A stretch of 64,000 nucleotides of DNA. Source: Spirochaetaceae bacterium UBA5200. GTDB taxonomy: Bacteria > Spirochaetota > Spirochaetia > Treponematales > UBA12059. The notes beneath the pieces were generated by a model. That model saw only the letters and a list, made by a program, of their open reading frames with translations. It searched no databases and was not told the origin of the DNA. Positions 14,177 to 32,327 of the stretch are shown here, piece by piece. The translations under genes were made by a program, and so were the position numbers. The DNA lies in NCBI GenBank assembly GCA_002412825.1, contig DHVU01000009.1, positions 35,323 to 99,322 on the forward strand, in the 5' to 3' direction. The stretch's first letter is position 1. Every line of letters starts with the position of its first letter.

Positions 14177-14420
14177 ATAAACTCCTTATAAGTAATATAG
14201 CAAAATACATGCCAATATTCATTAAAAGTAAAAATAATCGAAATTTTCCAGTATTTCATTTTTGTATAGATACTTAGCAAGCAGTACAGCTTAAATTTTT
14301 TAATAGACGAGTAGATACCTCAAGTGCAATCTTTGCACATCTTCGCAAAGCGTGTGTAATATATTCTCATTCAATAGCCCATGGCATTACAAGAGCTGCC
14401 GTAATAATAAATTAAATAAG

Positions 14421-14498: not shown

Positions 14499-14933
14499 TT
14501 AGCGGCCGCCGCGGCCGCCCCTCATGGATCCGCGTCCGGCGGTACCGGCGTTGGGAGCGCCCATCATGCCGCCGCGATTGGCGTACTGGCTCAGGTCATA
14601 GTCCTTGCCGCCCACGGTCAGCTTGGTAGCCTGGTAGAAGAAGCTGTTCGAGGCCAGGGGCACCGCGCTGGCATAGCCTTCGAGCTTAACGGCCGCGCCT
14701 TCTTTAAGGCTGTCAAGGAAGCCGTAGAGCATGCCCGGTATGCGCACGAAATAGGTCTTGCCGCCGGTAACTACCGCGGGGTGGCCTTCAACCAGGCTCA
14801 GCTTGCCGTCGATCTTCACGATTTCCTGCACGGCCTGCACGGTGGCGGGGGCGGCCCTCATGCCGAAGCCCTGGGCGGATACCGCAGCCACGCCGATTAG
14901 GGCGATGATCAGAACGATTGCTATACGTTTCAT
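14499..14933 (-). CDS. Small secreted protein of unknown family with Gly/Arg-rich C-terminal tail
   Basis: ATG 14933 with AAGGAG RBS. Signal peptide MKRIAIVLIIALIGVAAVSAQ. Tail RGGMMGAPNAGTAGRGSMRGGRGGR. Own sigma-54 promoter and own terminator. Confidence 0.7.
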   Translation of the reverse strand: MKRIAIVLIIALIGVAAVSAQGFGMRAAPATVQAVQEIVKIDGKLSLVEGHPAVVTGGKTYFVRIPGMLYGFLDSLKEGAAVKLEGYASAVPLASNSFFYQATKLTVGGKDYDLSQYANRGGMMGAPNAGTAGRGSMRGGRGGR

Positions 14934-15005: not shown

Positions 15006-15021
15006 TGCAACAATCGTGCCA
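15006..15021 (-). promoter_or_regulatory. Sigma-54 (-24/-12) promoter
   Basis: The minus strand reads TTGGCACGATTGTTGCAT, i.e. TGGCACG-N4-TTGCA, matching the consensus TGGCACG-N4-TTGCW. About 70 nt upstream of ATG 14933. Confidence 0.7.
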
Positions 15022-15218: not shown

Positions 15219-16613
15219 CTAAGGCGCGGGAAATTCGAGCACGAAGCGCGCGCCGCCTGATTCGGAGGATTGCGCTTCTATGCTACCGCCCATGGCCTCC
15301 ATAAATGCCTTGCAGAGCGCAAGGCCCATACCGGTACCCTGCTCGCCATTAGTGCCGAGCGTCAGTATCGTGCGGCCCGGCAGGAACATGCGGTCTATCT
15401 GCTCGGGGCGGAGGCCCACGCCGTCGTCCTCTACCATGGCCTGCGCGCGGCCATCCGGCAGGCAGCGCAGGCTTACGCCTATGCTGCCGCCCGGCTTTGA
15501 GTACTTTACCGCGTTAGACAGCAGGTTCCTGAACACCGTCAGGGCCGCGCGAGAATCGGCGGCGGCATAGGCCTCGTCTACCGGCATGCGTATGAGTATG
15601 CCCTTATCCTCCGCCGACGAGGCCACGTCGGAAGCCGCCTCCGCCACTACCTTTGCCAGGGCCAGCGGTTCCGGCTTCAGCTCAAGCTTGCCCGATTCGC
15701 TCCGGGCCCATTCCACCAGGTTTTCCAGTAGCAGAGCGGCGCGGTCCAGGCCCTCGGCCAAGGTGGCTATGTTTTCCCGCTTGGCGTTCAGGTCTCCTTC
15801 GTACTCTAGAAGCTGGTTTCGCGTGTAGCGGGCAGCGCTGCTTATCGGGGCGCGCAAGTCATGGCCGAGCACGGAAATGAGCGCGTCCTTCATGGACACC
15901 AGCCTTAAGAGCCGCCGGTTGCGCTCCCTGAGCGCATCGCCTATTTCATGCAACTCTTCCTCGCTGCGCACCGCGGACATGATAAAATAGCCGAACAGGT
16001 TAAAGAACGCCACGAGTATAGCCATCAGGTAGGAAAACGCGCTCATCCTGCCTTCTGCATAGATCGTTATTGGCGGCGAGCCCGCTAAGGTCGTGGCGAC
16101 GCGGAGGCCGGAGCTCAAGGCTATCGCGAAAAAATAGAGCGAGGCTACGATAGAGGCTAGGCGATACCGGTCCGTCTGCTCGCGAAGGATGATATACGCG
16201 TCCCACAGGGACACCAGACAGAGCAGACCCGAAAAAACGATGATGCGCGCGGCAACGCCCGTATCTTCCATGGCGAACCAGGCGACGAGGGCCATAGGTA
16301 AGAGTAAATACATGGCCAGCGGGAAAGGCTTCTGGCTACGGAAGCGCCAGAGCGCGTGGCCTAGGAGCAGGGCGCTGCCAACGAGCGCCACATTCGACAA
16401 GGACAGGAGGCCATAGGGCAGATCAGCCGCTTGAGCAGCCATGCCAATTATGCCGAAGGCCAGCAAGCCCTGTCCCGCCAGCCAATGCTTAGCGCCGGCG
16501 AAGGTCTTGCGCACGAAAAAGAGAACTAAGGAGAACGCGAGGCTCCCCACGTACACAAGGCTCAAGGCTATAAGCAGGGTAAAGATATCGAGGGAATCGA
16601 CGAAGGTTTCCAT
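15219..16613 (-). CDS. Membrane sensor histidine kinase (multi-TM N-terminus, HisKA, HATPase_c); no adjacent response regulator
   Basis: H-box SVLGHDLRAPIS, N-box FRNLLSNAVKYS, G-boxes EDDGVGL and GTGMGLALCK. About 6 predicted TM helices in the first 210 aa. Confidence 0.9.
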   Translation of the reverse strand: METFVDSLDIFTLLIALSLVYVGSLAFSLVLFFVRKTFAGAKHWLAGQGLLAFGIIGMAAQAADLPYGLLSLSNVALVGSALLLGHALWRFRSQKPFPLAMYLLLPMALVAWFAMEDTGVAARIIVFSGLLCLVSLWDAYIILREQTDRYRLASIVASLYFFAIALSSGLRVATTLAGSPPITIYAEGRMSAFSYLMAILVAFFNLFGYFIMSAVRSEEELHEIGDALRERNRRLLRLVSMKDALISVLGHDLRAPISSAARYTRNQLLEYEGDLNAKRENIATLAEGLDRAALLLENLVEWARSESGKLELKPEPLALAKVVAEAASDVASSAEDKGILIRMPVDEAYAAADSRAALTVFRNLLSNAVKYSKPGGSIGVSLRCLPDGRAQAMVEDDGVGLRPEQIDRMFLPGRTILTLGTNGEQGTGMGLALCKAFMEAMGGSIEAQSSESGGARFVLEFPAP

Positions 16614-17721: not shown

Positions 17722-17856
17722 ATGTCCTTTAAGCTCGATGGCGCAAAATTCCCCACCCTGGATGAGCTTGTCGAGGCGCTCTACCCTATGTATGCCGACA
17801 AGATGTCCGAAGAGGAGTTCCGCAAATACGCGGAGGAGCATGCCGAACAATCCTGA
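17722..17856 (+). CDS. Candidate 44-aa acidic helical small protein (below the ORF-track size cutoff)
   Basis: ATG 17722 is preceded by GGGGAG. Translation: MSFKLDGAKFPTLDELVEALYPMYADKMSEEEFRKYAEEHAEQS. It overlaps the downstream ATG 17840 by 17 nt. The competing frame (ORF start 17738) reads S/R/P/C-rich like off-frame sequence. Confidence 0.4.
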   Translation: MSFKLDGAKFPTLDELVEALYPMYADKMSEEEFRKYAEEHAEQS

Positions 17857-19498
17857 CACCCGCGCCCACCTAAGGCACGAGGCACGCACCTTCCTTAACC
17901 ACGCAATAGGCTACGCGGAACTCTTACCTGACGCCCGCGAATTAAATGCGGACAATAATTGCGCGCTTTCGCTCGTGACGGTCCAAACGGCAGCCCAAAG
18001 ACTCAGAAAGCCCATACTTGAGTACTTGGAATTCCTAGATCCAAGCGAAAACGCGCCAGGCGCGGTACAAAGCGATGAAAAAAGCGCGGAAACGCTCAAG
18101 CAGGAAGCCTATGCCCAAATCTATGACCTTATAAACGCCATTCAAGCCGCCAGACGAGCCTGCCCCAACAACGGCGCGCCTTTAGCGGCCGTGCATACAG
18201 ATCTACGCAGAATCCACGACGCCATCAATTCCTTGGTCGACCTGCTTGAGGAGCGCGAAGAGCGCGGCTCGTACGTGCCTGACGCCGCGCCGAGCGCGAG
18301 CAGCGCCGCACTGAGCGCGCCGGTCTTAAAGGGCCGCATACTGATAATAGACGACGACCAGTTTAACCGCGACCTGCTTACCCGGCACCTGGAGCGGCAA
18401 GGCCATGTGGTATGCCAGGCGGCTGACGGGCCGGCGGCATTCAACATACTCAGGCAAGCCAGTTTCGACATAGCCCTCTTAGATGTCATGATGCCGGGCA
18501 TGAACGGCTTCCAGTTCCTAGAGATCGTGCGCGGCGACAAGGCCTTACACGAACTGTCGGTTATCGTGGTAAGCGCACTGGATGATCCGGCGTCCATGGC
18601 GCGCTGTCTGGAACTGGGGGCGGAGGATTACCTCCAGCGCGATTTTAACCCCGTCATAATGAAGGCGCGCATAAACAATATCCTTGAGAAAAAAGAATAC
18701 AAGCTTCAGAATCAAGAGGCGCTGGGCAGATTGGCGGCGGCGCAGGCACGATTGGCTACCGAGCTCAAAGATGCGGCCGCCTATGTGCGCAGCCTCTTGC
18801 CAAAACGGGCTCGTTGGGCCGATATAGCCATAGATTGGGAATTTATACCCTCGCTCAGCCTCGGCGGGGACAGCTTCTCCTATAAGCGACTGAAAGACGG
18901 CAGGCTCGCCATATTCCTCATAGACGTGAGCGGCCATGGCATAGAGGCGGCGCTACTGTCGGTAACGGTCATGAACCTGCTTAAGACTATGGCTCTAGGT
19001 GGAGTGGACTACGGAGATCCCGGATCGGTGCTTAAGCGCCTCAACCTATCCTTCAAGGTAGAGGACCAGAACAATATGTACTTTACCATATGGTACGGCG
19101 TATACGACCCCGCCAACCATAAGCTCATCTACGCCACCGGAGGTGCCCCGCCCGCCGTGCTGGTCAATCCCGACGGCGCCATAGACGAACTCGTGGCCGA
19201 CGGCCCCATCATAGGGGTGGACGACGAAGCGCTTTTTGCGCACCGCAGCGTAATCGTAGCGCCCGGCTCGCACCTCTACCTCTTCAGCGACGGCCTTTTC
19301 GAGGTGCGCACCAAAGATGGCGGCCTCATGGAGTGGTCAGCCTTCCTCGAACTCCTCCTGGCGCACCACCGTGAATGCGCTTTGGCTCCCGCCTGCCTGT
19401 CGCCTATCAAGCGCATCGTGGACGCGGTGCTCGCGCTGTCGGCCAAGGAATACTTCGCCGACGACGTATCCATACTGGAATTCGCCTTCAATGATTGA
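17840..19498 (+). CDS. Response-regulator receiver fused to a PP2C/SpoIIE (RsbU-like) phosphatase, with an N-terminal helical H-box-like domain
   Basis: N-terminus HLRHEARTFLNHAIGYAELL. Receiver ILIIDDDQFNRDLL...DIALLDVMMPGMNGF. PP2C region LGGDSFSY...IFLIDVSGHGIEAALLS...LFSDGLFE. Start is uncertain (17738 or 17840). Confidence 0.85.
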   Translation: MPNNPDTRAHLRHEARTFLNHAIGYAELLPDARELNADNNCALSLVTVQTAAQRLRKPILEYLEFLDPSENAPGAVQSDEKSAETLKQEAYAQIYDLINAIQAARRACPNNGAPLAAVHTDLRRIHDAINSLVDLLEEREERGSYVPDAAPSASSAALSAPVLKGRILIIDDDQFNRDLLTRHLERQGHVVCQAADGPAAFNILRQASFDIALLDVMMPGMNGFQFLEIVRGDKALHELSVIVVSALDDPASMARCLELGAEDYLQRDFNPVIMKARINNILEKKEYKLQNQEALGRLAAAQARLATELKDAAAYVRSLLPKRARWADIAIDWEFIPSLSLGGDSFSYKRLKDGRLAIFLIDVSGHGIEAALLSVTVMNLLKTMALGGVDYGDPGSVLKRLNLSFKVEDQNNMYFTIWYGVYDPANHKLIYATGGAPPAVLVNPDGAIDELVADGPIIGVDDEALFAHRSVIVAPGSHLYLFSDGLFEVRTKDGGLMEWSAFLELLLAHHRECALAPACLSPIKRIVDAVLALSAKEYFADDVSILEFAFND

Positions 19499-23131: not shown

Positions 23132-23575
23132 CTATTCCTGTGCCCCGAGTTCGCGTATACGGTCGTAGGCTTTTTTGAGGGCCAGGAATTCCTCGGCAGA
23201 GCCGCCTCTTGCATCGGGGTGGCAGAGCCGGGATCGCCGCTTGTAGGCTTTCGCGAGCTCCGAACGCGGAGCGCCCGGCTCTAGGCCGAAGAGGGCGTAG
23301 AGCCGCGCCCGTTCCTGGCCAGCCTGTATCCGAGCCTCTTCCGCGGCGGAGGGCCGGGGCGGGGCGGCCTCCCCTTCTGGCGGCCTTGCGGCAAGCGCGT
23401 CGAGCATAGCGCCAAGCAGACAGCCCACGGCCGCGCCGAAGATAAAGAGCCGGCCTCCAGCCAAAGCGCCGAGCAGGGTAGCCGCTATGCGGCCCTTATA
23501 CGGCTTGAGCGCTTGCACGCGAACGCACAGCGCCGCGTGCCATGCGCGAAGCCGCTCCCCTCTGGCCGGCATCAT
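23132..23575 (-). CDS. Membrane-anchored J-domain (DnaJ-like) protein
   Basis: Central hydrophobic segment IAATLLGALAGGRLFIFGAAVGCLLGAML. C-terminal J domain LYALFGLEPGAPRSELAKAYKRRSRLCHPD...FLALKKAYDRI. Confidence 0.75.
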   Translation of the reverse strand: MMPARGERLRAWHAALCVRVQALKPYKGRIAATLLGALAGGRLFIFGAAVGCLLGAMLDALAARPPEGEAAPPRPSAAEEARIQAGQERARLYALFGLEPGAPRSELAKAYKRRSRLCHPDARGGSAEEFLALKKAYDRIRELGAQE

Positions 23576-25239
23576 CGGCGCGGCGCATGCATCGCTATCC
23601 TAGCCGCGCTGTACACGCATATAACGACGCAGATACTCAGAAAGGCTAACCATGCGGGCAGGAAACTCGAGCCGGGCATGGCCTGCGCAAGGATAACGAT
23701 GGCGAGGCGGGCCGGCCCAAGGGCCACGCTTAGAGCCGGCAGAGTTAGAGCGGCCATGGCAGGAGCCCAGAATAGGGTAGAACCCAGACCCGGCCGCTCC
23801 TTGGGCCTGAAGCGCATGCCCATAGCGGCGCCTATGAGTACCAGCATGACGGTAACGAAGGGATAGGAAAGGCGCACGGCTACCGCTTCGAGGAAGGCCG
23901 GCCTGTCCAGTCCCAGTCGCTCGGCGTCATCAAGGCCGCCCATAAGGGTGAGCAAAGCCAGTTCGGAGGGCTCGGCGGAAAGCTCAAGATAGCGCCGCGT
24001 CTCGGTTTCGCTGAAGGGAGCATCGATCACCGGGGGCGCGGCGCCTGTACCGCTTAAGAGCAAGGGTTCCCACAGCTGCGCAGGATTATCTTTATCAACG
24101 GCTTTTAGGTACAGCGCGTCACCTTGTATGCGGCCGAAGGCGGCGCGCAACTCCATAGTCCCGCTTACATACACCAGGTCCCGCATGTATACGCCCGAAG
24201 GCGATGAAACCGCCGCGCGAGCGCGGAGGCTCTGAGCGCCGGGGCCCTGCCCCTTGGCCAATGAAAGCGGGCGGGCGTTCGCCTGGCTGAAGGCCAATTG
24301 CTCTTCATCGATAAAAAAGGCAACGGAGGCAAGCCCCTGCGCGCTTTTCTCCCTATACGTGGCCACATCAGGGTCGTCAGGCCGTATTTCTGCGAGCGCC
24401 GTGTAGAGGCAGTAGGCTTCTAGATATTCGCCGGCAGAGAACAGACGGTAGCCCTCAAGCTTACGCCCATAGAACGCGGCATTCTCAACTTCCTGCGCGC
24501 TCGGTGCCAGGCTACGCATAAGTGTCCAGCTGTCGTCCACGAGCTTGGCCACTTCCCTCCTGCCCGGGTACAGGGCAAGCGAGCGCTTAGCCAGGTAATG
24601 GGCATCGAAGTACCGCCCATCATCGCGCGCGCTGAGCGCCTCGATATAGAAGCGGTTGGCCTCAAACCAGCTCGGCGCTTCAGAGGCGGCGGTATCCTGC
24701 TGCCCCGTGTCGGCCGCCCTATCGCTCGCCCGTATCAGCGCCTCCTGTATACGGTCATTAAGGTCGATAAAACGCTGTTCAGAGCGGTCTATAGCCTTGC
24801 ACCTGAGAATGTGCTCCGAAGCAGCAGCGTAATCCCCGTCATCGTAGGCGTCTTTAGCCAGGCCCAGGCTGCGGTTAAAATCTGCGCTGGCGCTCTCGTA
24901 CCAATGCGCGCGCGCATCCGCGAGGGGAACGACCAGCAGAAAGAACAAAGACAGGGCCGCGGCTATGACAAAGGCAGGCGTTAGAAGACTATACGCCATA
25001 TCATGGTAGGAGTGTTCCCCCTCGGAACGCTCAGCGGTCAGGGCAGCCGCAACGAAGAGTAGGGCAGGAGCCCATGCCGATAGCCTGCCCAGAGCGCTGG
25101 CGAGCTCCCAGCCAAGCGCGAAGCTGTACAGCACGGCCGCTTCCCGTAGGCCTATAACCGACCAGAAAAAGCTCGCGGCAAAACCAAGGGCCATGAGTCC
25201 GAGCACATACGCTAAGAATGGCGAACGTTGTTTAGGCAT
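23572..25239 (-). CDS. Hypothetical polytopic membrane protein with a large TPR-like/soluble middle domain
   Basis: 3-4 TM helices at each end. Middle region has TPR-like helices (YDDGDYAAASEHILRCKAID, GRYFDAHYLAKRSLALYP, GEYLEAYCLYTALAEIRPDD). No family recognised. Confidence 0.6.
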   Translation of the reverse strand: MPKQRSPFLAYVLGLMALGFAASFFWSVIGLREAAVLYSFALGWELASALGRLSAWAPALLFVAAALTAERSEGEHSYHDMAYSLLTPAFVIAAALSLFFLLVVPLADARAHWYESASADFNRSLGLAKDAYDDGDYAAASEHILRCKAIDRSEQRFIDLNDRIQEALIRASDRAADTGQQDTAASEAPSWFEANRFYIEALSARDDGRYFDAHYLAKRSLALYPGRREVAKLVDDSWTLMRSLAPSAQEVENAAFYGRKLEGYRLFSAGEYLEAYCLYTALAEIRPDDPDVATYREKSAQGLASVAFFIDEEQLAFSQANARPLSLAKGQGPGAQSLRARAAVSSPSGVYMRDLVYVSGTMELRAAFGRIQGDALYLKAVDKDNPAQLWEPLLLSGTGAAPPVIDAPFSETETRRYLELSAEPSELALLTLMGGLDDAERLGLDRPAFLEAVAVRLSYPFVTVMLVLIGAAMGMRFRPKERPGLGSTLFWAPAMAALTLPALSVALGPARLAIVILAQAMPGSSFLPAWLAFLSICVVICVYSAARIAMHAPRR

Positions 25240-25939
25240 CGCGGGCTCCTCCCTCGGTCTTGCCGGCTAGGAGGGCGTCAAGCGCGAGGAGGCCAAGGGA
25301 GCTAAGCCCGCAGAGTATGGCCAGGTAATAGGAGGGGGCAAGCTCAAGTCCAACAAATATAAACAGTCCGTTCAGGGCTCCTCCGACGTAGATCGACAAG
25401 AGGTGCCACATACCCACTAAAGCGCCCGGTACTAAAAAGGCGCCGACGAGAGGCCTCTTGGCTGATAGGCGCGTAAGCGCCCAACAGGAACTGAGCACCA
25501 GCGCAAGCCCGGCCACTCCGGCTATGGCCTGTGGCAGGGGCAGGCTGTCCAAGCCCTGGTACCAGCGCAGCACATCGCCGAGAGCCGAGTCAAAGGCCGG
25601 CAGGGTTTCGGCCCTCATCGCGAGAAGGCCTAGGCGGCTGAGCGCAAGAGGCGCGCCGAGCGTAAACAGGCTGAGTACGAGTAGGGTCAGGTAGCCAGTC
25701 AAGCGATGCCTGTATACACGGTTCAGGGTAAAGAAGCTGGTTAGGAGGGCAAAGCTCGTCGGCAGGGCAGGCAGGGTCCATAGCGACCAGAGCGCTAAGG
25801 CGGCCAACGGGTGCTCCCAGGCAGCGTTATAGCCCATAGCGGCGACGTATATCGCCACAGAGGCCTCAGCGATGACAAAGCTTAAAAAAAAACGCAGTAC
25901 GGCCGAGGCCAAACGCTTCATAATTATAAACTGTAGCAT
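25232..25939 (-). CDS. Hypothetical multi-pass membrane protein
   Basis: Hydrophobic throughout, and overlaps the downstream gene by 8 nt. The listed ORF starts at GTG 26005, inside a DnaA-box-like motif, so internal ATG 25939 is preferred. Start is uncertain. Confidence 0.5.
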   Translation of the reverse strand: MLQFIIMKRLASAVLRFFLSFVIAEASVAIYVAAMGYNAAWEHPLAALALWSLWTLPALPTSFALLTSFFTLNRVYRHRLTGYLTLLVLSLFTLGAPLALSRLGLLAMRAETLPAFDSALGDVLRWYQGLDSLPLPQAIAGVAGLALVLSSCWALTRLSAKRPLVGAFLVPGALVGMWHLLSIYVGGALNGLFIFVGLELAPSYYLAILCGLSSLGLLALDALLAGKTEGGARDA

Positions 25940-25995
25940 GGCTCTAACCCATTGACAAGCAAAGCCAATAAGGAAAGCCACAATCAATAAACAAC

Positions 25996-26004
25996 TTATC
26001 CACA
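25996..26004 (+). promoter_or_regulatory. Perfect DnaA-box consensus TTATCCACA (site 1)
   Basis: ACAACTTATCCACAAG. The same extended motif recurs 223 bp away. Confidence 0.4.
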
Positions 26005-26218
26005 AGCGCGTCCATGCTGGCCTGCATAAGTACAGAAGCGGCTCACTGGTCCTGTTTAGTAAACCGGAAGCCCCTCCGGCGGAAACAAGGCTCTAGTTGC
26101 TGTTTATATATGTATTTAACCAATTTCTTACACAAATTCGAAGCTTTTTACTTAGGCTTATCTCCGCGTCAAGGACCGGCGCAGCAGGTCTTTTGAATGC
26201 GCACAATGAATCAACAAG

Positions 26219-26227
26219 TTATCCACA
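26219..26227 (+). promoter_or_regulatory. Perfect DnaA-box consensus TTATCCACA (site 2)
   Basis: ACAAGTTATCCACAGG, in the same orientation as site 1. An AT-rich stretch lies between them. Confidence 0.4.
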
Positions 26228-26259
26228 GGCTTAATTGCTTAATAAAAAACTCTATTTCT

Positions 26260-26883
26260 TTATTCGAGCAGACAGTAGGCTCCGCGTCTGGCGGCTGTAG
26301 CCCGTAGGGCGACAAGCCTTGAAGCGGCCCTTGCTCCGCCGCAGGCGCGCAGAGCGGAACGCAGTCGGGACATAGCCATGTCTAGGGCTCGGCTCGACGA
26401 GGCCTTTGTTTCCATTACGGCTGCCAGCGCTTCGCGAGGCACGGCCCGCGGCCGGTTTGCCGCCAGGAGGGCTAAGGCCGCGGAGGCCGTTGCGCTTAAT
26501 GGCACACGCCCAAGGGTACCGCAGAGCATGCCGTATCGTACGCTTAAGCCGCTAGCATCAAGCTGCAGGGCAGAAAGAGAACGAAGTTCGGCGCGCGCCA
26601 GCAATTCGTCCTGCGTCCATGGTTCGCGCATATAGTCGGCGCAGCCGGAACCCAGACAGAGGTCAAGCAAGCGCTCGGGGCCGTAGGCTATGAGCGGGGC
26701 TGCATAGAACTCCTGAGGCCGTGCCAGCACCATGGCCGCGGGGGCGACGACAAGATCCCAGCGACCGACCTCTCCAAGAGCGGGAAAATCCGCTTCAAAG
26801 AAAAAGGAGCGCTCACCCTGAGGCGCGCTCCCTGTTTTCATCCTGCTATACTGCTCTTCGTTTCCGACGAACAGTATGCGCAT
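26260..26883 (-). CDS. Atypical OmpR-family regulator: pseudo-receiver plus winged-helix (Trans_reg_C-like) domain
   Basis: MRILFVGNEE (DD pocket replaced by GN). WDLVVAPAAM has Ala at the phospho-Asp position. GCADYMREPWTQDELLARAE aligns with the receiver alpha4-beta5 region. C-terminus LSATASAALALLAANRPRAVPREALAAV...ALDMAMSRLRSAL resembles OmpR wHTH. Confidence 0.65.
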   Translation of the reverse strand: MRILFVGNEEQYSRMKTGSAPQGERSFFFEADFPALGEVGRWDLVVAPAAMVLARPQEFYAAPLIAYGPERLLDLCLGSGCADYMREPWTQDELLARAELRSLSALQLDASGLSVRYGMLCGTLGRVPLSATASAALALLAANRPRAVPREALAAVMETKASSSRALDMAMSRLRSALRACGGARAASRLVALRATAARRGAYCLLE

Positions 26884-26886
26884 AGC

Positions 26887-27585
26887 CTAAGCCTGACCGG
26901 TGCTGCCTTCGGTAAGCATCTTCTGCTTAAGCTCCTCAAGCAGAAGGTCTGCTCCGGCGCCCGAGCTTTCGAGCTTGGCGAATTCCTTCTCTAGGGAGGA
27001 GGATTGCGAGAGGTCGGCAAGTTCCACGCTGGCCTCGGCCCGGGCTTCAAGCTCGTCCACCTTTTTAGCCATACGGTCAAAGGTATCAAACGCGCTCGTA
27101 TTGCCTGACATGGAGGTCAGGGTCTTCTGAATTTTCTGTTGAGCCTCAGCCCGCTTAGCGCGCGCTATGAGTATGTTCTTCTTACGGGCAGCTTCGTCGA
27201 TCTTATTCTGAAGCTGGCGCAGGGTTTCCTTAAGCTTCTCTACCGCGGCTTTCTGGCTCTCCCACTGGGGCTTGAGCTGCAGGTAGTAATTCTCGGCTTC
27301 CTGTTTGCGGAGCAGGGCCTCTTTGGCCAGGTCATCACGCCCCGCCTTAACGGCGATAACCGCTTTTCGTTCCCATTCCTCTACCTGGCGCTTCTGCTCC
27401 AGAAGCTCGCGTTCTATCTTCTTCTCGTCCGCTATGGCCATGGCTACGGATTTCTTGGACTCAATCATCTGCTGGTTCATATCGATGAGCAGCTGGTTAA
27501 GCATTTTTTCCGGATTCTCCGCCTTGGAGATCATATCGTTTATATTGGAGGATAAAACCGTCTTGAACCTATCAAAAATACCCAT
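26887..27585 (-). CDS. pspA: PspA/IM30 family protein
   Basis: MGIFDRFKTVLSSNINDMISKAENPEKMLNQLLIDMNQQ followed by a long coiled coil. GAGGAGG RBS. Confidence 0.9.
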   Translation of the reverse strand: MGIFDRFKTVLSSNINDMISKAENPEKMLNQLLIDMNQQMIESKKSVAMAIADEKKIERELLEQKRQVEEWERKAVIAVKAGRDDLAKEALLRKQEAENYYLQLKPQWESQKAAVEKLKETLRQLQNKIDEAARKKNILIARAKRAEAQQKIQKTLTSMSGNTSAFDTFDRMAKKVDELEARAEASVELADLSQSSSLEKEFAKLESSGAGADLLLEELKQKMLTEGSTGQA

Positions 27586-27602
27586 GCAGAGCCTCCTCTG
27601 AA

Positions 27603-27986
27603 TTAGTCCCGGTACTTACCGAGGACGGCATAATGCTTTGAAAGAGCCATCCCGACCGAGTCGAGGGCAGCTTCGAATTCATTCTTGTCCATATTATCAT
27701 ACTCAAGGGTGTCCACGAGTACGATATCGTCGCCGTCGATACCGTATGCGCCATGGAGTATATCCGTAGCGTTGAAACCGAGGAGCGTCTCAAGCAGCTG
27801 TATGTCTTTTACCTTAGGAAGCGCCATAACCTTGGTGCGTATAAAAACCACCGGCTCATCAATGGTTATAGCCACGCCGGGGAGGCCCCTCGTCTCGTCT
27901 TCCACGAAGAAGGTGTTCGGCGCTACTTCTTGGTAGGAAATATCAAGATCCATGAGGTACGATTCTACTTTGCTCATTCCCTGCAT
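27603..27986 (-). CDS. YbjN-domain (T3SS-chaperone-like fold) protein
   Basis: 127-aa acidic protein (ISYQEVAPNTFFVEDE...VVFIRTKVMALP...GAYGIDGDDIVLVDTLEYDNMD) resembling YbjN-family proteins, which often sit next to pspA. Confidence 0.6.
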   Translation of the reverse strand: MQGMSKVESYLMDLDISYQEVAPNTFFVEDETRGLPGVAITIDEPVVFIRTKVMALPKVKDIQLLETLLGFNATDILHGAYGIDGDDIVLVDTLEYDNMDKNEFEAALDSVGMALSKHYAVLGKYRD

Positions 27987-28050
27987 ACACTCACTCCTTG
28001 CGCGTAGTGTTCGCGATCAACCCCGGCCCTTAAGGACAGGGGCAACGCCT

Positions 28051-28602
28051 CTAGCCAAGGAATACTTGCCCGGAATTGTCGATCGCGAGGATGGTTTTAC
28101 ATTCTGAGCAACGGAAGCGGCCGGGCCTGGCGGCGCGGAGCTTTTTATTGCAGATAGGACAGGAGAAAATCTTGGGGAACACCGACTGCGTGTTCATTTG
28201 CGAACCCTGCTGGAAATACCCGACGGCCTCTTCAAGGTTGTCTTTGATATTGAAGAACTGCGAGAAGCCTAAAAGCTGAAAAACTTCGTATACCTTGGGC
28301 TGTATTTCAAGCAGGACGATATCACCGCTTCTGGGCTTTACGGCCTTTAAAAAAGCGGTAAAAGAGCCTATACCCGTAGAGGATACATAGTTTAGGCCGC
28401 CGCAATTAAAAACTAGCCTTGAGAAACCAGCGTCGATGGCCTTACCCACCCTCTTCTGGAAGAAATTAGAATTGTAGGTATCTATATACCCGGTAAGGAA
28501 GAGGGCAAGGCAGTTTTCTACATTCTCAAGTTTCTGGAGCCTGATTTTTAGGCTATCGTCCTTTTCGTCATCGAAGCCAGGAACGATATCGTTGTTGGTC
28601 AT
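28051..28602 (-). CDS. STAS-domain (anti-sigma-factor-antagonist-like) protein with a C-terminal CxxC...CxxC zinc ribbon
   Basis: STAS core LVFNCGGLNYVSSTGIGSFTAFL...LLEIQPKVYEVFQLLGFSQFF. Tail CPICNKKLRAARPGRFRCSECKTIL. Confidence 0.8.
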   Translation of the reverse strand: MTNNDIVPGFDDEKDDSLKIRLQKLENVENCLALFLTGYIDTYNSNFFQKRVGKAIDAGFSRLVFNCGGLNYVSSTGIGSFTAFLKAVKPRSGDIVLLEIQPKVYEVFQLLGFSQFFNIKDNLEEAVGYFQQGSQMNTQSVFPKIFSCPICNKKLRAARPGRFRCSECKTILAIDNSGQVFLG

Positions 28603-28648
28603 GGTACTCCTCTTCCAACGTACTACTTAGATCGTTGTATATCGTCCA

Positions 28649-28677
28649 ATTGTATGAACATAATAATTCACCGTCAA
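28649..28677 (-). promoter_or_regulatory. Strong sigma-70-type promoter of the STAS-ybjN-pspA operon
   Basis: The minus strand reads TTGACG-17 bp-TACAAT (-35 at 28677-28672, -10 at 28654-28649), about 45 nt upstream of ATG 28602. Confidence 0.5.
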
Positions 28678-28803
28678 TGCCCTGTCAAACAAGAGCTTAA
28701 AATATTACGGCAAAAGGCTGGACGACAAGCCCTCGACGTAATTTTCGGCTACTTAGGTCGAAAATTCCAGTCCTTCTTGCTTTTTTTTCCTAGCTAACTC
28801 GAC

Positions 28804-29562
28804 TTAGAGCGCATAAAGCCCCTCATCGGCGTTAATAAGCGCTCCATTATAGAGTTCCATAGCCCCGGAAAGCAGGCCTAGAGCCGCCTTTCCTAGCTCT
28901 TCCGGCAGTAGTAGTCTGCCTCGCGGGGCGCGAATAATCAAGCTTTCCCGCATGGTATCGCTAATATACTCCGTATCGACGAAGCCGGGGCATAAAACGG
29001 CGCAGGAAACGCCTCGATTGCTGTATTCCTGGGCCAGGGATTTAGCCAGGACCCCGAGGCCCGTCTTGGCCGCCGCGTAGGCGGCGTTGAGTTTATAGCC
29101 CCGAATCGCGTCCGTTCTCGTGCCGCCGAAGAATAAAATTCGCCCAAAACCGCGTACGGCCATGTGCCGAGCGGCGTTGGTAGACAGTATTCCGGGCAAC
29201 GCCAGATTAAGCAGGGCCATGTGCCGCCAATCCTCGTCGCTCGTATCCTCGAGGCTCTTATATACGAAGGGCCCATACGCAAGCACTAAAAGATCGGCCT
29301 CCTGAGCCTCTCTCAAGAGAGCCTCGGGAGGGTTCCCGCTGGCCAGATCCGCCAGTATGCCCCGAAGAGGCAAACCGGCAGGCCCGCGCGCGGCGCAGGA
29401 ACTGAGCGCCGCGTCCAGTCGATCCTGGTTTCTGCCGTGCAAACAGAGCGCGACGCCCTCCGCGGCAAGGGCCTCCGCCACGGCTTTTCCTATGCCGCCG
29501 CTTGCGCCGATAATGAGGGCGTGTTTCCCTGCTATGCTCGTTTCCAATCGCGTGTGCATCAT
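28804..29562 (-). CDS. Short-chain dehydrogenase/reductase (SDR)
   Basis: Cofactor motif IIGASGGIGKAV and catalytic YAAAK. Confidence 0.9.
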   Translation of the reverse strand: MMHTRLETSIAGKHALIIGASGGIGKAVAEALAAEGVALCLHGRNQDRLDAALSSCAARGPAGLPLRGILADLASGNPPEALLREAQEADLLVLAYGPFVYKSLEDTSDEDWRHMALLNLALPGILSTNAARHMAVRGFGRILFFGGTRTDAIRGYKLNAAYAAAKTGLGVLAKSLAQEYSNRGVSCAVLCPGFVDTEYISDTMRESLIIRAPRGRLLLPEELGKAALGLLSGAMELYNGALINADEGLYAL

Positions 29563-30943: not shown

Positions 30944-32146
30944 TCAGCGCAGGAGGCTACGCTGGCCAAGGCCGCACGAAGCGCTCCGGTTACGCTCGAT
31001 ATCCTCGCCGACTATGAGCCTTCGTTCCATGCTCAACACGGCGACCCGGTTTATCAGGTTTTTAAGCTCCCGCACGTTACCAGGCCAGTGCCAGGCCTCG
31101 AGCGCCAGGAGCGCCGACTCGTCGAAGGCCTTTTCCGGCGCGACCTCAGCCAGGAAGGCACGAGCGAGCAAGGGTATGTCTTCTGGATGATTTCGCAGGG
31201 CGGGCAGCCGCAAGGTAAGCACATTCAGGCGGTTTAAGAGCTCGGGCCTAAACGCCTTAGGATCATCAAGCAAAGGCGCGTTGGTGGCTGAAAGCACCCT
31301 GACATCATAGGAGCGCGACTCGCTCGAACCCATGCGCGTTCCGCTTCGATTCTCAATGGCCCGCAGCAGTTTCGGCTGAACGCTCAGCGGGAGCTCTCCA
31401 ATCTCATCCAGGAACAAGGTCCCTCCCTGTGCCGCCTCAAAGTGCCCCTGCCGCTCCACGGCGCCGGTAAAGGCCCCTTTAGCGGTGCCGAACAGTTCGC
31501 TTTCTGCGAGCTGCTCAGGAATGGATGCGCAGTTAACCGCGATAAAGGGCTTGGTTTTACGTACCGAGCGCGCATGGATCTCCGCCGCGGCCAATTCTTT
31601 GCCTGTGCCGCTCTCCCCCACGATCAGCACGGGCATGTCGTGCCTTGCATAGAGTTCCGCGGTACGCAAAAGCTCGTGTATAGCCATGCTCGTGCCTAAG
31701 AACCTTGGACTAGCAACCCTATCGATGGTATCGCCTTGCTGCAAACTCCGGGAATAGGGGTCGCGGGCATCCAGCGCGGCCCCTAGCCGCCAAGCTATTG
31801 CCGCCCGCAAGGTGCTCACGAGCAACCGGGGCTCAAAGGGCTTGATTATGAAGGAACTAGCCCCCGCGTGCACCAACTCGACGACCGCCTGAGCCTCAAG
31901 CTCGGGCAAGGCGGCCACGATAGCCGGATTATGGAGGCTCTTGTGTAGAATATCCAAAGGATAGGCATACGGGCCGAGGGTAGCAGGGCCTATATCCAGC
32001 AGCACCGCGTCGAAAGGCCGTCCCTTCCAAGCAGCCAAAGCCGCTTCCACGGAGGGGCACAGCTCAAGCTCAAAGCTCCGTGCGAGCAAGGATCGCGCCA
32101 TCAATGACGATTCGGGATCTGAATCGACTACCAGTATTTTTTTCAT
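30944..32146 (-). CDS. Sigma-54-dependent response regulator (receiver plus AAA+), lacking the C-terminal HTH
   Basis: MKKILVVDSDPES...AVLLDIGP receiver. AAA+ with VGESGTGKE, ESELFGTAKGAFTGA and FLDEIGELP. The protein ends about 25 aa after WPGNVRELKN, so there is no room for a Fis-type HTH. ATG 32146; the upstream ORF extension looks non-coding. Confidence 0.88.
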   Translation of the reverse strand: MKKILVVDSDPESSLMARSLLARSFELELCPSVEAALAAWKGRPFDAVLLDIGPATLGPYAYPLDILHKSLHNPAIVAALPELEAQAVVELVHAGASSFIIKPFEPRLLVSTLRAAIAWRLGAALDARDPYSRSLQQGDTIDRVASPRFLGTSMAIHELLRTAELYARHDMPVLIVGESGTGKELAAAEIHARSVRKTKPFIAVNCASIPEQLAESELFGTAKGAFTGAVERQGHFEAAQGGTLFLDEIGELPLSVQPKLLRAIENRSGTRMGSSESRSYDVRVLSATNAPLLDDPKAFRPELLNRLNVLTLRLPALRNHPEDIPLLARAFLAEVAPEKAFDESALLALEAWHWPGNVRELKNLINRVAVLSMERRLIVGEDIERNRSASCGLGQRSLLR

Positions 32147-32327
32147 TGTTATACCGCGAGTATAGCACTGTTTCTTTTTTATAGCCAAAATAATTGTTAA
32201 AAAGCGTATATATAGAGAGAAGTTTACGATTTTCGGTTGCGAATCGGTCATTGTTCTTGTAGGCTTAATCAAGTAAAATCGAAACTCATAAAGTATGGCC
32301 CCACGGGGTCTTCAAGAGGAAGCACGA

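Follow-up and report, generated by a model that had tools for sequence, protein, structure and literature searches.

The locus described here is a psp-type operon on the minus strand of a 64,000-nucleotide stretch of DNA from Spirochaetaceae bacterium UBA5200 (assembly GCA_002412825.1, contig DHVU01000009.1), hereafter called the window. Four genes are located in the operon (28602..26260). The first (28051..28602) encodes a protein of 183 amino acids (aa) with a STAS domain and a C-terminal zinc ribbon, the STAS-ribbon protein. It is followed by a gene for a small CesT/Tir-like chaperone of the YbjN superfamily (27603..27986, 127 aa) and by the gene for PspA/IM30, the bacterial ESCRT-III-like membrane-protection protein (26887..27585, 232 aa). 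The fourth gene (26260..26883, 207 aa) starts 3 nucleotides (nt) past the pspA stop codon and encodes an atypical OmpR/PhoB-type regulator, REG. An earlier note on this DNA had reported four tightly spaced genes on the same strand, and its intergenic gaps of 64, 17 and 3 nt, with the last junction read in the sequence as tag-gct-atg, were reproduced exactly. A scan for intrinsic terminators detected no terminator-like site on the coding strand in 25900-29000. The operon looks native, because the G+C content at third codon positions of its four genes (0.60-0.67) matches that of the neighbouring genes, all values lying within 0.60-0.70. For the same reason, the lower overall G+C content of the STAS, cesT and pspA genes is attributed to amino acid composition, and horizontal transfer as its cause was rejected. 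REG is identical to a protein of the Spirochaetaceae metagenome-assembled genome GCA_003446465.1.

Conservation of the cluster in spirochaetes

Related loci were chosen through the STAS-ribbon protein. The 80 best were retained, all of them spirochaetal by title where named, and their genes were labelled by tblastn and iterated hidden Markov models; gene order was counted over the 69 species-level loci with enough downstream sequence. The genes for STAS, CesT, PspA and REG are present in that order in 45 of the 69, which bears out the co-conservation that the earlier note had proposed to look for, with regulators down to 26% identity. Median gaps across loci are 43, 16 and 3 nt, and CesT and PspA genes are adjacent in 54 of the 69 loci. 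Identity to the window proteins decreases in a strict ranking, with 78-98% for STAS, 50-99% for PspA, 36-97% for the CesT-like protein and 26-74% for REG. The range for STAS spans 80 species. The four-gene cluster is real and old, but modular, and a PspA module of spirochaetes as such can be accepted with high confidence.

The four proteins

The first gene product had been described as a STAS domain with a VSSTGIG motif, fused to a CxxC...CxxC ribbon. Both parts are indeed present: Pfam assigns the STAS family (PF01740, 5.8e-21) with weak zinc-ribbon matches over residues 139-171, and the motifs VSSTGIG and CPIC...CSEC are seen. Moreover, the NCBIfam model for anti-sigma-factor antagonists, TIGR00377, matches at 2.4e-15 (56.3 bits with a cut-off of 53.45). 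The AlphaFold model (predicted local distance difference test score, pLDDT, 71.6) contains a disordered N terminus (residues 1-16), a STAS fold (20-131) and a separate beta-ribbon (144-182). The N-terminal peptide MxNNDIVPGFDDE is invariant, yet disordered in the model, which suggests that it may be a docking peptide.

The best Foldseek matches of the STAS model are SpoIIAA, RsbV and RsbS, with target-normalised template modelling scores of 0.75-0.79, and the sequence aligns with SpoIIAA, RsbV and TM1442. In this alignment, S75 falls opposite Ser58 of SpoIIAA, the first of the two Ser residues in its DSSGLG motif, and the stretch S74-S75-T76-G77-I78-G79 is invariant in 10 aligned family members. 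These likenesses support a STAS domain of the SpoIIAA/RsbV anti-sigma-antagonist type with S75 as predicted phosphorylatable Ser position. An MlaB-like transporter subunit was also considered and rejected, as the top 50 fold matches consist of anti-sigma antagonists and SLC26/SulP STAS domains.

The STAS-ribbon protein is widespread. A sequence search gave 2755 matches; identity is 78% or more along the full length in every one of the top 120, which include the cultured species Gracilinema caldarium, Spirochaeta cellobiosiphila and S. thermophila. In a scan of one genome per species, the protein was found in at least 537 species, and a search of 50%-identity representatives yielded 180 STAS-ribbon clusters at E<=1e-30. 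Since most of these clusters, at about 180 aa and 37-60% identity, align end to end, the architecture extends past the nearly frozen spirochaete clade. The contigs of three distant members were located. The first (L094:3252-7996) carries three tandem STAS-ribbon paralogues, all with an NNDIVPGFDDE-type N terminus, which are flanked by an HATPase_c_2 (RsbW-like) protein and by a protein with the phosphatase signature HCxxGxxRS; a further flanking protein resembles, by eye, a class III nucleotide cyclase, and a Band_7 gene lies 3 kb on. On another (L096), a DSPc phosphatase gene directly precedes the STAS-ribbon gene, and one distant member stands alone. The distant relatives that adjoin phospho-signalling genes are 42-49% identical, and their HATPase_c_2 and phosphatase neighbours suggest that the family may be phospho-regulated.

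The second gene had been named YbjN. The YbjN family does match (2.3e-7), but CesT_Tir_1 (PF22550) fits better (1.7e-27). The gene directly precedes pspA in the same orientation, at 17 nt in the window and at a median of 16 nt across loci. The identification of the third product as PspA is confirmed by PF04012 (PspA_IM30), which covers residues 2-221 of 232 at 1.4e-52 (179 bits, cut-off 33.9); TIGR02977, whose equivalog cut-off is 243 bits, reaches only 161. By eye, MGIFDRFKTVLSSNINDMISKAENP at the N terminus is similar to the start of other PspA proteins. In the REG-less loci L032, L033, L050, L055 and L056, a strong hairpin-plus-T-run terminator is present directly after pspA. Where REG is present, there is no such terminator after REG.

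REG consists of a pseudo-receiver (residues 1-102) and a winged helix-turn-helix (wHTH) domain (approximately 110-205). In the Pfam search, the latter is recognized by Trans_reg_C (3.6e-6, 27.4 bits with a cut-off of 26.2), and a Response_reg hit is absent. A direct search returned 13 matches only, so that the family looked tiny; the family profile and the column counts given below are based on 50 relatives, while the AlphaFold input was a 13-sequence alignment. The 50-member profile matches OmpR/PhoB regulators of the PDB over the alpha4-to-wHTH region (8.6e-22), with full-length matches to HP1043 (2hqr) and VanR. The AlphaFold model (pLDDT 79.9) has the order beta1-alpha1-beta2-beta3-alpha3-beta4-alpha4-beta5-alpha5 followed by the wHTH, with a shortened second helix. 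Foldseek returns whole OmpR/PhoB regulators from the PDB, with CosR, MtrA, HP1043, RitR and GlnR at the top; all of these but MtrA are listed as acting independently of phosphorylation. The profile of the receiver only aligns best with the second, non-phosphorylatable receiver (REC2) of PleD, and also with many other receivers.

The active site of a receiver is lost from REG. Gly7 and Asn8 replace the acidic pair and the Lys is lost, as had been claimed, with Glu87 in place of the latter, and Y67-G68 occupies the Thr/Ser position. The position of the phospho-accepting Asp is taken by Pro48, according to both the PleD pseudo-receiver profile alignment and the point at which beta3 terminates in the predicted AlphaFold structure; the Ala that the earlier note had placed there, Ala47, is the preceding residue. 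The window protein thus does not retain the phospho-acceptor. Among the 50 relatives, the acceptor column contains Pro in 36, an Asp in four and a Glu in one, and the Lys column contains Glu in 33 and Lys in none. A small CesT-less subclade (L061, L066, L069, L078, L089) retains an Asp at this site, still without the Lys and the Thr. Because the active-site residues Asp, Thr and Lys are gone while the OmpR-type wHTH is kept, REG is not a classical two-component regulator, as the earlier note had argued, and no cognate histidine kinase gene is present in the conserved cluster. The invariant receiver residues in the 50 relatives, G68, G80, D83, P88, E93 and R97, all belong to alpha4-beta5-alpha5, the dimerisation surface of OmpR/PhoB proteins. 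The wHTH is conserved as well (SRxxDMxxSRLR), and the N-terminal half is highly variable. In three loci (L045, L046, L052), the regulator is shortened to 147-173 aa and most of the receiver is missing. REG fits the published definition of atypical response regulators with an aspartate-less pseudo-receiver, which are a known class (PMC12632262; PMC4395418).

Control regions and neighbouring genes

A consensus scan placed two overlapping sigma70-like promoters, offset by 11 nt, before the operon (28649..28688, minus strand). The strong promoter of the earlier note, TTGACG (28677..28672)-17-TACAAT (28654..28649), is present with 10 of 12 consensus matches, but the better one lies 11 nt upstream, TTGACA (28688..28683)-17-TATTAT (28665..28660), with 11 of 12. 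Such matches are not rarer than chance in the operon region (3 observed, 2.5 expected). All 78 related loci have a sigma70-like promoter at this place, at a distance of 58-151 nt upstream of the ATG, and the layout ATTTGACAnGnCATTGACG...TAnnAT...TAnAAT is common to the clade of the window.

Control of the operon by sigma54 was considered and rejected, as no TGGCAC-N5-TTGCW site is conserved before the STAS gene. In 28603-28803 of the window, none is present on the operon strand; the only match with two mismatches or fewer there, TGGTACTCCTCTTCCA (28602..28617), has the orientation opposite to that of the operon (plus strand); its -12 GC is missing, and it runs into the start codon and the ribosome-binding site. 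Across the window, 27 sigma54-site matches were observed and 28.5 expected. Among the related loci, a perfect sigma54 promoter, TGGCACTATTCTTGCA, is confined to L045 (Rectinemataceae, at approximately 2933), where it lies at -154 with respect to the STAS gene, and its relatives L046 and L052 carry degenerate versions.

Further upstream, the conserved element GCCGAAAAT (28749..28741, minus strand) lies inside an inverted repeat (28740..28766) with the arms AATTTTCG (28766..28759) and CGAAAATT (28747..28740). Of 78 loci, 43 have a GCCGA(A/T)A sequence in the 260 nt that precede the STAS gene, compared to approximately 5 expected, and many GCCGA(A/T)A(A/C/T) copies have T(T/A)(C/T)AGTT 12-13 nt upstream, a combination that may resemble the sigma28 (FliA) promoter consensus. 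The element is located upstream of the sigma70 promoter in the clade of the window and downstream of it in the Gracilinema-/Treponema-like loci L048, L051, L053, L054 and L065.

Approximately 300 nt downstream of the operon lies a translationally coupled pair of genes for membrane proteins, DS1 and DS2. The intergenic region between REG and DS1 (25975..26230, minus strand) contains two TGTGGATAA elements in the same orientation, at 26227..26219 and 26004..25996, and no other exact copy exists in the window. A conserved TGT(G/T) comes 11 nt after each element, and the AT-rich spacer between them contains further conserved blocks. The pair is kept, 211-247 bp apart, in nearly all loci with DS1/DS2, the first site starting anywhere from about 40 nt upstream to 60 nt downstream of the REG stop codon, and 175 of the 321 near-matches in 946 kb of loci fall within the REG-DS1 spacer. 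The TGTGGATAA element is a perfect DnaA-box-like 9-mer. A replication origin in this region was rejected, given that the GC skew does not reverse around 26 kb and that the flanking genes are on one strand. A structured RNA in the spacer was rejected as well, since 12 aligned loci gave no consensus pairs and Rfam no credible match; the single hit of Rfam on 25800-28900 is below threshold, belongs to a eukaryotic long non-coding RNA model and lies inside pspA on the opposite strand.

The promoter of the downstream pair (25930..25958, minus strand) reads TTGTCA-17-TACAGT with a TG-extended -10, and in a 12-locus alignment GCTTGTCAAG-N14-cATGCTACAGTT is nearly invariant. DS1 (25232..25921, minus strand, 229 aa) is a multi-pass membrane protein without a Pfam family. 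Its true start is likely the ATG at 25921 (MKRLASAV...), as indicated by the 12-locus alignment and the gene call; the mechanical open reading frame from the TTG at 26005 (25232..26005) would cover the second TGTGGATAA element and the conserved promoter. DS2 (23572..25239, minus strand, 555 aa) is a putative LptF/LptG-like permease with a TPR-like insert, and its start overlaps the end of DS1 by 8 nt in the window (median -9.5 nt across loci). In the DS2 family, PF03739 (LptF_LptG) matches 23 of 31 members (best 7.3e-10) and TPR families match several; the window protein itself gives a weak PF03739 match over residues 419-490 only, at 21 bits with a cut-off of 27.9. Where LptF/LptG permeases have their periplasmic beta-jellyroll, the middle region is TPR-like. 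The possibility that DS1 is a hidden LptF/G paralogue of DS2 was rejected (hhalign probability 9%, no Pfam family). DS1 and DS2 are present together in 52 of 61 loci with enough sequence, including some without PspA or REG. In one locus (L009:3534-4865), a Band_7 (stomatin/flotillin-like) gene follows a DS1-like gene instead of DS2 and thereby echoes the known association of PspA with Band-7 proteins.

On the other side of the operon, a gene on the same strand (30944..32272, minus strand) encodes a sigma54 enhancer-binding protein with a receiver and an AAA+ domain (Response_reg 3.8e-7, Sigma54_activat 3.6e-57), in which the Pfam search gave no HTH_8 hit for a DNA-binding helix-turn-helix (HTH). 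In more distant lineages this activator gene directly abuts the STAS gene, and in the clade of the window a short-chain dehydrogenase gene and a divergent SpoU methylase gene are inserted between them. The activator and the DS1-DS2 pair are neighbours no less conserved than the operon itself. PspB and PspC domains are absent within 10 kb on either side, and LiaRS was not found nearby. Elsewhere in the window, a perfect sigma54 promoter, TGGCACGATTGTTGCA (15021..15006, minus strand), precedes the gene for a small secreted Gly/Arg-rich protein (approximately 14932..14500), which ends in a terminator, and a one-mismatch sigma54 promoter, TGGCATGTATTTTGCT (14214..14199, minus strand), precedes an OEP-MFP-ABC-FtsX efflux operon. 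Both sites adjoin a histidine kinase gene (16613..15219), whose product is of the HisKA type and not of the RsbW type.

A candidate PspA circuit and its alternatives

The components of the operon are of known kinds. The CesT/Tir-PspA dyad has been defined as a conserved core (Ravi et al., 2024; PMC11237479), and the spirochaete operon shares with it the small CesT/Tir gene directly upstream of a co-oriented pspA. In the published dyads, the additional genes are of the Band-7/flotillin, AAA+, polyamine-synthesis or YjfL type, whereas STAS and OmpR-type genes are added here; STAS is not mentioned in the main text and one supplementary file of that study. The psp-type operon ydjFGHL of B. subtilis likewise couples PspA to zinc-ribbon proteins (PMC11237479), but the domain joined to the ribbon there is not STAS, being Band-7 in YdjL and a YpeB-like membrane protein in YdjG, and the partner is a TPM-domain protein instead of a CesT-like one. 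A pspA gene next to a dedicated transcription factor is also found in the operons PspF-PspABC of E. coli and ClgR-PspA-PspM-PspN of mycobacteria, both listed by name in PMC11237479. Unlike these, the spirochaete operon has no PspB, PspC, PspM, PspN or sigma54 promoter, and its transcription factor is an aspartate-less OmpR/PhoB protein. PspF consists of AAA+ and HTH without a receiver, in contrast to the neighbouring sigma54 activator, which has a receiver and no detected HTH.

REG shares the receiver-plus-wHTH fold and the degenerate active site with the atypical regulators HP1043 (HsrA), CosR, ChxR, RitR and GlnR (PMC4395418; PMC12632262; PMC3960148; PMC8345958). HP1043, CosR, RitR and GlnR are among its best structural matches, and the alpha4-beta5-alpha5 face is conserved in REG. 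It differs from them by its low identity (14-21%), the Pro at the phospho-site, the shortened alpha2 and the position of its gene within a psp operon, and for none of these five is a connection with PspA or with STAS proteins known. The STAS-ribbon protein has the fold of the antagonists SpoIIAA, RsbV and HsbA and a Ser at the position of Ser58 in SpoIIAA, but it additionally possesses the invariant acidic N-terminal peptide and the C-terminal ribbon, and no cognate kinase or anti-sigma gene is adjacent to it. Its conservation of 78-98% is far above what is expected for SpoIIAA/RsbV-type proteins. In several phyla including Spirochaetota, pspA tends to be located with genes for HTH or other regulatory domains (Popp et al., PMC9239133); the supplements of that study that were examined contain nothing more specific on spirochaetal pspA. 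In a full-text literature search, 'Treponema' and 'phage shock protein A' occurred together only in an unrelated domain survey. While pseudo-receiver OmpR regulators and the CesT-PspA dyad have thus been described (PMC4395418; PMC12632262; PMC11237479), no description of their combination, its phylum-wide conservation and the STAS-ribbon link was found in the psp literature searched.

A PspA-type module with a STAS switch and a contact-controlled REG is the best explanation as a whole, though a tentative one that falls somewhat short of being probable. The operon, with its STAS-ribbon, CesT-like, PspA and REG genes, would be transcribed from the conserved sigma70-type promoter, and PspA would be the effector of a spirochaete-wide membrane-protection module. 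The CesT-like protein may hold in check either PspA or the invariant, unfolded peptide at the N terminus of the STAS protein. The latter protein, the STAS-ribbon protein, would act as a partner-switching element that relays the state of the membrane, with Ser75 being toggled by a kinase and a phosphatase encoded elsewhere. REG would bind DNA as a phosphorylation-independent dimer through its alpha4-beta5-alpha5 face, and its activity could be set by contact with PspA or the STAS protein and not by a histidine kinase, by analogy with E. coli and mycobacteria, where PspA titrates PspF and ClgR, respectively. The targets of REG would most likely be its own operon and/or the adjacent DS1-DS2 promoter. 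This wiring of the four products ranks between rather unlikely and possible. The control logic different from that of PspF/sigma54 and LiaRS which the earlier note had suggested is plausible.

Several observations weigh against this explanation. Control of PspA by the STAS-ribbon protein and REG is something we infer from gene order only, and that order varies: REG is missing in 9 of the 69 loci, the CesT-like gene in 8 and PspA in 7, so that neither REG nor PspA is obligatory for the STAS protein, and the STAS gene is alone in 2. In 5 loci (L047, L070, L073, L074, L076), CesT and PspA are both missing and REG directly follows STAS, with a spacing between an 8-nt overlap and an approximately 40-nt gap; this speaks for the explanation, as it links STAS and REG independently of PspA. 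REG evolves fast and STAS is near-frozen, which is odd for a dedicated pair. A REG-specific operator was not found at the operon promoter. The direct repeat TTGACA-N5-TTGACG was tried in this role and rejected, because it is clade-specific and independent of REG, being kept in some REG-less loci (L032/33) and missing in some REG-bearing ones. The TGTGGATAA sites were rejected as REG operators as well, since they travel with DS1/DS2 and not with REG: they persist in REG-less loci and vanish where DS1/DS2 are absent. The STAS domain is of the kind found in partner-switching proteins, as had been proposed, namely SpoIIAA/RsbV with Ser75, but no RsbW/SpoIIAB-type kinase (small HATPase_c_2) was found in approximately 54 of the 64 kb of the window. 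The PP2C phosphatase named as candidate partner does exist and is the only one found there, a REC-PP2C (17840..19498), but it is encoded on the plus strand, 7.4 kb away, with six unrelated genes in between. Finally, the sigma54 promoter, PspB/PspC and LiaRS are lacking, in line with a control independent of PspF and LiaRS, but a homologue of the sigma54 activator is located upstream on the same strand in 62 loci. Because this activator is a conserved neighbour, the absence of a PspF-like input cannot be claimed.

A rather unlikely alternative is that the STAS-ribbon protein and the DS1-DS2 membrane pair form the functional core, with the STAS protein serving or regulating the membrane machine, to which PspA with its chaperone and REG are optional add-ons, so that the locus would not primarily be a PspA circuit. 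The STAS gene is followed by DS1 and DS2 in the 52 of 61 loci mentioned above, among them the five loci without PspA and CesT, and L062 keeps the pair without PspA or REG; the LptF_LptG matches of the DS2 family and the strongly conserved promoter and control region of the pair can be counted on the same side. Conversely, the constancy of STAS is partly by construction, because the loci were selected through this protein, and PspA is the best-conserved member after it. The STAS fold is closest to SpoIIAA, RsbV and RsbS, with no MlaB-type subunit in the top 50 matches, the cluster contains no ABC ATPase, and the gap of approximately 300 nt and the separate promoter part the pair from the operon. 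Another unlikely reading makes the STAS-ribbon protein a general anti-anti-sigma factor that serves a sigma/anti-sigma pair encoded elsewhere, e.g., FlgM and sigma28 as for Pseudomonas HsbA, and is merely co-expressed with pspA, with REG as an independent orphan factor. The SpoIIAA-like fold with its invariant phospho-Ser position would fit this role, as would extreme conservation, which is expected of a protein contacting core machinery, and two papers (PMC6482189 and PMC5085249) treat STAS proteins of the HsbA type together with the control of FlgM and RpoS. The GCCGA(A/T)A element in 43 of 78 loci could be added as a putative sigma28-like element. No sigma or anti-sigma gene is present in the conserved neighbourhood or in the examined parts of the window, and co-expression alone explains poorly that the order with cesT-pspA is kept across spirochaete orders with gaps of 16-43 nt.

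That the fourth gene is a decaying, functionless remnant of a classical response regulator is highly improbable. REG is the fastest evolving of the four proteins, it is lost in 9 loci and its N-terminal half is highly variable, but an intact open reading frame of approximately 200 aa exists in more than 55 species, with six invariant residues, a conserved wHTH and a confidently predicted fold. Furthermore, the 3-nt coupling to pspA is conserved, and close relatives show substitutions and no frameshifts. A more far-reaching form of the PspA-type module is doubtful, namely a circuit that has not been described before and would control PspA in much of the Spirochaetota. In it, the near-invariant STAS-ribbon protein, with its phosphorylatable Ser, would be the membrane-stress switch and would free or sequester REG and/or PspA through partner switching, with the CesT-like protein as adaptor. 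Such a circuit would replace PspF/sigma54, LiaRS and ClgR, and its output would be coupled to an LptF/G-like envelope machine with tandem TGTGGATAA sites at its promoter.

PspA/IM30 proteins are bacterial relatives of ESCRT-III, and the control of their deployment is known for few lineages, i.e., PspF-PspBC, LiaRS and ClgR. The locus offers a concrete set of conserved components, open to experiments in cultured species. The STAS-ribbon protein retains approximately 80% identity between distant spirochaete genera, a constraint that points to an important set of contacts. Besides, the locus would be one more example for work on the switching of pseudo-receiver regulators (PMC12632262).

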